Below are positions 56,590-56,706 of a stretch of DNA of 64,000 nt, one piece after another. This stretch comes from Escherichia coli. GTDB lineage: Bacteria > Pseudomonadota > Gammaproteobacteria > Enterobacterales > Enterobacteriaceae. Location: assembly GCF_024223415.1 (NCBI RefSeq), contig NZ_CP100500.1; one strand, 5' to 3'. The notes beneath the pieces were generated by a model. The model worked only from the letters and a program-made list of their open reading frames with translations. It did no database searches and was not told where the DNA came from. Positions within the stretch are counted from its first letter, which is position 1. The number at the start of each line of letters is the position of its first letter. The translations under genes and the position numbers were made by a program.

Positions 56590-56605
56590 ACGCAAACGTG
56601 TGCGT
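56590..56605 (+). promoter_or_regulatory. PurR operator (ACGCAAACGTGTGCGT) upstream of purC
   Basis: 16-bp near-palindrome matching the PurR box consensus, about 155 nt upstream of the purC ATG. Confidence 0.55.
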
Positions 56606-56651
56606 CGGCAGGAAAACGCGATTTTAGCGGTAATTCGCACGAAATTTGTTT

Positions 56652-56706
56652 GTCGGACGTAGTTCGGATAAGGCGTTCACGCCGCATCCGACAAAACATC
56701 CGGCAC
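56652..56706. repeat. REP palindromic unit in the bamC-purC intergenic region
   Basis: gtcggacgtagttcggataaggcgttcacgccgcatccgac matches the REP consensus family. Confidence 0.6.

Follow-up and report, generated by a model that had tools for sequence, protein, structure and literature searches.

The PurR operator of Escherichia coli purC overlaps the mapped transcription start, upstream of a REP element in the transcribed leader

The pur operators of Escherichia coli (purF, purMN, purL, purHD, purEK, and purC) share the same 16-bp box with a central CpG, recognized by PurR, a regulator of the LacI/GalR family. The abstract of He et al. (1990) is said to state that every pur operator overlaps its own promoter, and regulation of purC was reportedly found to be purR dependent both in that study and by Meng et al. 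(1990). In pur promoters, the PurR site generally coincides in part with core promoter elements (Cho et al. 2011, PMC3159470). The sites at purB and purR are of another kind, lying well inside the transcribed or coding region, where PurR blocks elongation, as restated in the same paper (PMC3159470). Two further classes of element bear on the purC locus: REP (PU) elements, which have a canonical core preceded by GTAG and are found outside genes, including between tandem genes, and sigma-70 promoters of the extended -10 (TGn) type.

We examined the purC control region in a 64-kb stretch of E. coli DNA, referred to below as the window (Table 1). The gene order dapA, bamC, purC, ypfJ is that of K-12 b2478 to b2475 on the opposite strand, and sequence identity over positions 56450 to 56850 is 100% with E. 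coli O157:H7 genomes and 99.8% with K-12, for which the U00096.3 coordinate is 2,654,377 minus the window position. The purC coding sequence, at 714 nt, has the length of K-12 b2476. An 83-aa ORF on the minus strand (56457 to 56708), which overlaps both the end of bamC and the REP element, was treated as spurious.

Table 1. Features of the bamC-purC intergenic region and purC, in window coordinates
Feature	Position	Strand	Basis
bamC intrinsic terminator: hairpin 56553-56574, then T run	56553..56579	+	Terminator scan; Term-seq
purC extended -10 element TGaTATGAT (-15 to -7)	56581..56589	+	Sequence reading, TSS spacing, conservation
PurR operator (PUR box), -6 to +10 relative to the TSS	56590..56605	+	Scan, ChIP-chip motif, enterobacterial identity
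purC TSS (+1)	56596	+	Kim 2012 TSS-seq, RegulonDB v10.5, EDL933 Cappable-seq
purC 5' untranslated leader, 163 nt	56596..56758	+	TSS and ATG positions
Distal copy (A) of duplicated ancestral leader segment	56609..56640	+	Local alignment; core repeat
Escherichia-specific insert, 72 nt, one REP	56641..56712	+	Alignment to relatives; REP identity; fold
Proximal copy (B) of duplicated leader segment	56713..56744	+	Invariant among the Escherichia sequences compared
Shine-Dalgarno AGGAG, 8 nt before ATG	56746..56750	+	Sequence reading; kept in relatives
purC CDS (SAICAR synthetase, 237 aa)	56759..57472	+	ORF list; RefSeq annotation of matching genomes

The PurR box, ACGCAAACGTGTGCGT, is a 16-bp imperfect palindrome that keeps the central CG and matches the consensus, ACGCAAACGTTTGCGT, at 15 of 16 positions. 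It was the only site in the window with no more than one mismatch, against 0.01 expected from shuffled sequences, and comparison with K-12 showed the box there to be identical. Its reverse complement, ACGCACACGTTTGCGT, is the motif under the purC peak in K-12 ChIP-chip of PurR (Cho et al. 2011, PMC3159470, Table 1), and occupancy at this peak responds to adenine (PMC3159470). The box is thus the documented K-12 site itself, bound by PurR in vivo according to the K-12 literature. It starts 169 nt and ends 153 nt upstream of the purC ATG, in agreement with the distance of about 155 nt given in the initial annotation. A window scan allowing up to three mismatches, for which 0.45 sites would be expected by chance, found no second PUR box near purC. 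Far from purC, at 34644 to 34659, a box-like site with three mismatches (ACGCGCGCGTTTGCGT) lies inside the ORF at 34072 to 34818; it is absent from Table 1 of Cho et al. 2011 and is probably a chance match.

Transcription of purC starts within the box. The TSS table of Kim et al. 2012 (PMC3415461) lists one purC TSS, at NC_000913.2 2,595,803 on the minus strand, with a 5' UTR of 163 nt, and the upstream sequence printed for it, ending in ...GATACGCAAA / ...CTGATATGATACGCAAA, places the start at window position 56596, the third A of the box. This start was supported by just 24 reads in that study (PMC3415461). A TSS-to-ATG distance of 163 nt is given both by RegulonDB v10.5 for MG1655 and by Cappable-seq for O157:H7 EDL933, the difference between the two being 0 (PMC10469882, Table S5, sheet 3), and the EDL933 assay covered eight culture conditions (PMC10469882). 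No purC TSS downstream of the REP element is reported in either the K-12 or the EDL933 maps. The original primer-extension mapping of the purC start is reportedly that of Tiedeman et al. (1990). The ROSE supplement has no purC entry, and the Kim 2012 supplements, which hold E. coli rows only, list no Klebsiella purC TSS.

The sequence immediately upstream fits this start. The TSS lies exactly 7 nt past the end of the hexamer TATGAT (56584 to 56589, -12 to -7), which is preceded by TG at -15 and -14; a TGn motif and hexamer followed by a TSS 6 to 8 nt downstream is the arrangement of an extended -10 promoter. No recognizable -35 element was found for purC, its position being taken by the 3' arm of the bamC terminator stem. 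In sharing the TG, the hexamer, and the lack of a usable -35 element with described extended -10 promoters, the purC promoter differs from them in nothing notable. A sigma-70 consensus scan of 56400 to 56900 returned no promoter; the scan demands a -35 match and is therefore blind to the extended -10 type.

Because the mapped TSS puts the box at -6 to +10, the operator is conventionally placed, at a position where bound PurR would interfere with polymerase. A mapped promoter and TSS with the box in a conventional position, which the initial annotation had named as evidence against its reading, are what the published maps give; its term distal is apt relative to the ATG but not relative to the promoter. 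The comparison with published PurR operators that it proposed also speaks against an unusual geometry. The cvpA-purF box lies at -36 to -21 by the table of Kim et al. 2012 (PMC3415461) and the purMN box at about -35 to -20, taking the TSS 44 nt upstream of the purM start. These two boxes cover the -35 region and spacer whereas the purC box covers the start itself, but all three lie within the polymerase footprint. Overlap with the core promoter and in vivo occupancy by PurR are thus features that purC has in common with the other pur operators. When measured from the gene start, the purC box looks as misplaced as the PurR sites at purB and purR; in contrast to those sites, it overlaps +1 and would act at initiation. 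The window also contains the purMN PUR box (31760 to 31775), which lies upstream of purM, an ORF of the minus strand; its sequence, AAGCAAACGTTTGCGA, is that of the published purMN operator read as the reverse complement.

The distance between operator and ATG was then compared across 80 purC loci, with one genome per species and the best PUR box located in each; Salmonella lay outside this set. An identical PUR box is present in at least about 25 enterobacterial species among the 80 loci listed. The box starts 65 to 68 nt before the ATG in four Citrobacter species and in Enterobacter, Pseudocitrobacter, Leclercia, Phytobacter, and Pluralibacter, and a distance of 168 to 169 nt was seen, among the loci listed, only in Escherichia (the window, E. 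albertii, and a divergent genome labeled E. coli). The box is directly preceded by the same TGATATGAT, with an identical -10 element, in Citrobacter, Pseudocitrobacter, and Pluralibacter. Alignment showed the Escherichia leader to be longer than that of Citrobacter by about 103 nt, made up of the 72-nt REP insert and a duplication of about 32 nt. The duplicated segment is single copy in Citrobacter, and in Escherichia its two copies (A and B) bracket the insert as an imperfect direct repeat. Local alignment of A with B scored 14, compared with 6.5 +/- 1.2 for shuffled sequences, and none of 2000 shuffles reached 14. A flanking duplication of about 32 nt is unlike the product expected of an IS200/IS605-like REP-associated transposase.

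Sequence drift within Escherichia is concentrated in the same part of the leader. In a comparison of eight Escherichia sequences, positions 56606 to 56712 had 29 variable columns out of 107, and the remainder of the region had 1 out of 119 (Fisher P = 1.3e-9). Essentially no change was seen in the terminator, the -10 element, the box, or the 62 nt that directly precede the ATG. This variability may reflect gene conversion instead of relaxed constraint. Unrelated inserts of about 35 to 60 nt were observed between the PUR box and the Shine-Dalgarno sequence in Kluyvera (L018:1371-1500) and in Enterobacter sp. BIGb0383 (L021:1401-1500), one of them with small palindromes of its own. Since these inserts occupy the same place, the leader position appears tolerant of insertions and, on this comparison of sequences, seems to accept them repeatedly.

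The element carried by the Escherichia insert is a genuine REP. Its core (56659 to 56693) lies about 100 nt upstream of the ATG within an extended hairpin (56648 to 56708), whose main stem (56651 to 56705) agrees to within 1 nt with the palindromic unit that the initial annotation had placed at 56652 to 56706. Positions 56663 to 56692 match the canonical REP at 27 of 30 positions, with 0 such matches expected by chance, and a BLAST search with 56659 to 56693 alone as the query found copies elsewhere, the median number of places being 6 in each E. coli genome. GTAG at 56659 to 56662, the same in 8 of 8 Escherichia sequences, would from its sequence correspond to the 5' tetranucleotide recognized by RAYT. 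The element is extragenic, lying between the bamC stop (56546) and the purC ATG (56759), and so shows the consensus hairpin, the dispersed copies, and the extragenic location that define the class. It resembles typical E. coli REPs in these respects and in its position between tandem genes, but differs in being a single, slightly degenerate unit located downstream of the next gene's promoter and bracketed by the direct duplication of about 32 nt. It also lies in a 5' UTR, whereas REP effects have been studied in the 3' UTR (10.64898/2026.03.23.713779). The canonical REP used as the reference for this match occurs exactly on the minus strand of the window at 62107 to 62136, about 5.4 kb downstream of the leader REP.

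The extended hairpin has a folding energy of -27.4 kcal/mol (z = -4.4), with none of 200 shuffles equally stable, and the core hairpin alone -15.4 kcal/mol (z = -3.7). A long structured 5' UTR, one of the two alternatives raised in the initial annotation, is therefore what the mapped TSS gives, as the leader measures 163 nt and includes the REP hairpin. A riboswitch-like structured leader was considered and rejected, as the fold of the whole leader has a z of only -0.82 relative to shuffles and significance is confined to the REP hairpin. The naRNA4 sRNA gene was likewise rejected: the Rfam match at 56662 to 56706 scored 30.9 bits, where the gathering score is 59.5, and reflects REP similarity, naRNA4 being REP derived.

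In our judgment (probability about 0.93), this is the usual control region of E. coli purC, with an operator at the start site, a transcribed 163-nt leader, and an Escherichia-added REP and duplication as probable passenger. RNA polymerase would start at 56596 from the extended -10 promoter right after the bamC terminator, and PurR with hypoxanthine or guanine would sit on the start site and exclude or trap the polymerase; we infer this steric repression from the position of the box. The 153 nt between operator and ATG would then be transcribed leader and not promoter DNA, of which about 103 nt would have been added in the Escherichia lineage. The sequence drift and the absence of mapped RNA 3' ends make a tolerated passenger the most likely reading of the REP, which would have little or no regulatory role.

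The alternative that the REP hairpin is a working posttranscriptional element that tunes purC, whether as a partial or Rho-linked terminator, as a barrier or entry site for RNase, or as a protein-binding site, draws on the stability of the hairpin and on its retention, which extends to E. albertii and, within E. coli, to 5405 of 5426 genomes. A recent preprint adds that REPs between tandem genes tend to favor the upstream gene, biasing expression against the downstream one, in an analysis that did not consider promoters (10.64898/2026.03.23.713779). Because of this result, a modest dampening of purC by the REP is conceivable. As to termination, however, Term-seq lists no 3' ends within or after the REP or anywhere else in the leader, and on the plus strand no U run follows the stem. 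Nor does the hairpin look maintained, as conservation of its outer stem breaks down in E. albertii and in locus L003, and nowhere does the region vary more than in the insert. It also begins about 53 nt from the 5' end of the transcript, too distant for a 5'-terminal stabilizer; RNase E depends on the RNA 5' end. Finally, close relatives regulate purC without a REP. We therefore regard a tuning function as unlikely. It is similarly improbable that the Escherichia insert is non-neutral in dampening or stabilizing purC mRNA, a layer absent from Citrobacter and Enterobacter, or that the duplication records an undescribed route of REP entry.

A different role for the box itself was also weighed, namely that it serves mainly as a roadblock against read-through from dapA-bamC, as PurR does inside purB, and not in control of initiation. 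The elongation blocks at purB and purR provide the precedent, and the box lies only 11 nt past the 3' end of the bamC terminator. That terminator, however, is strong: it has the G+C-rich hairpin and U run of an intrinsic terminator, and RNA 3' ends were mapped by Term-seq to K-12 2597798/9, corresponding to window positions 56579/56578 (Adams et al. 2021 supplement, PMC7815308). With the mapped TSS inside the box, control of initiation is sufficient and a roadblock would be additional at most, making the roadblock reading very unlikely. Terminator and promoter are tightly packed at this locus (56553 to 56596), with the bamC RNA 3' end 17 to 18 nt upstream of the purC start. The other alternative raised in the initial annotation, a promoter downstream of the REP with PurR acting from about 100 nt upstream through looping or a REP-dependent DNA structure, is hardly credible: nothing speaks for it but the length of the interval from box to ATG (the empty consensus scan favors neither promoter location), and against it stand the TSS maps of K-12 and EDL933, each with one start, at 163 nt, and none beyond the REP, the lack of a neighboring second PUR box with three or fewer mismatches for looping, and the relatives without the insert, which keep the box beside the same -10 element.

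For the start-site operator with a REP-bearing leader, the promoter, the TSS, and the PurR site with its occupancy were already known from RegulonDB and from published ChIP and TSS data. What we did not find described in the literature searched is a minor addition, namely that the leader REP is an Escherichia insertion accompanied by a duplication of about 32 nt and that drift is confined to the insert. Beyond correct annotation the importance is slight. The locus does illustrate that operator geometry should be judged against the TSS and is poorly predicted by how far the operator lies from the start codon, as leaders can gain about 100 nt by insertion of a repeat. The filled and empty sites in Escherichia and its relatives form a pair useful for studying a REP inside a 5' UTR. 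In recent genome-wide analyses, REPs that separate tandem genes were assigned to 3' UTRs without the use of promoter maps, and a case such as purC would not be set apart by them.

Downstream of purC, the interval before ypfJ contains, at 57626 to 58252, a small gene pair that by eye resembles a VapB/VapC-like (PIN-domain) toxin-antitoxin system. The purC-ypfJ gap in K-12 is just 167 nt, which indicates that this segment is a strain-variable insertion.
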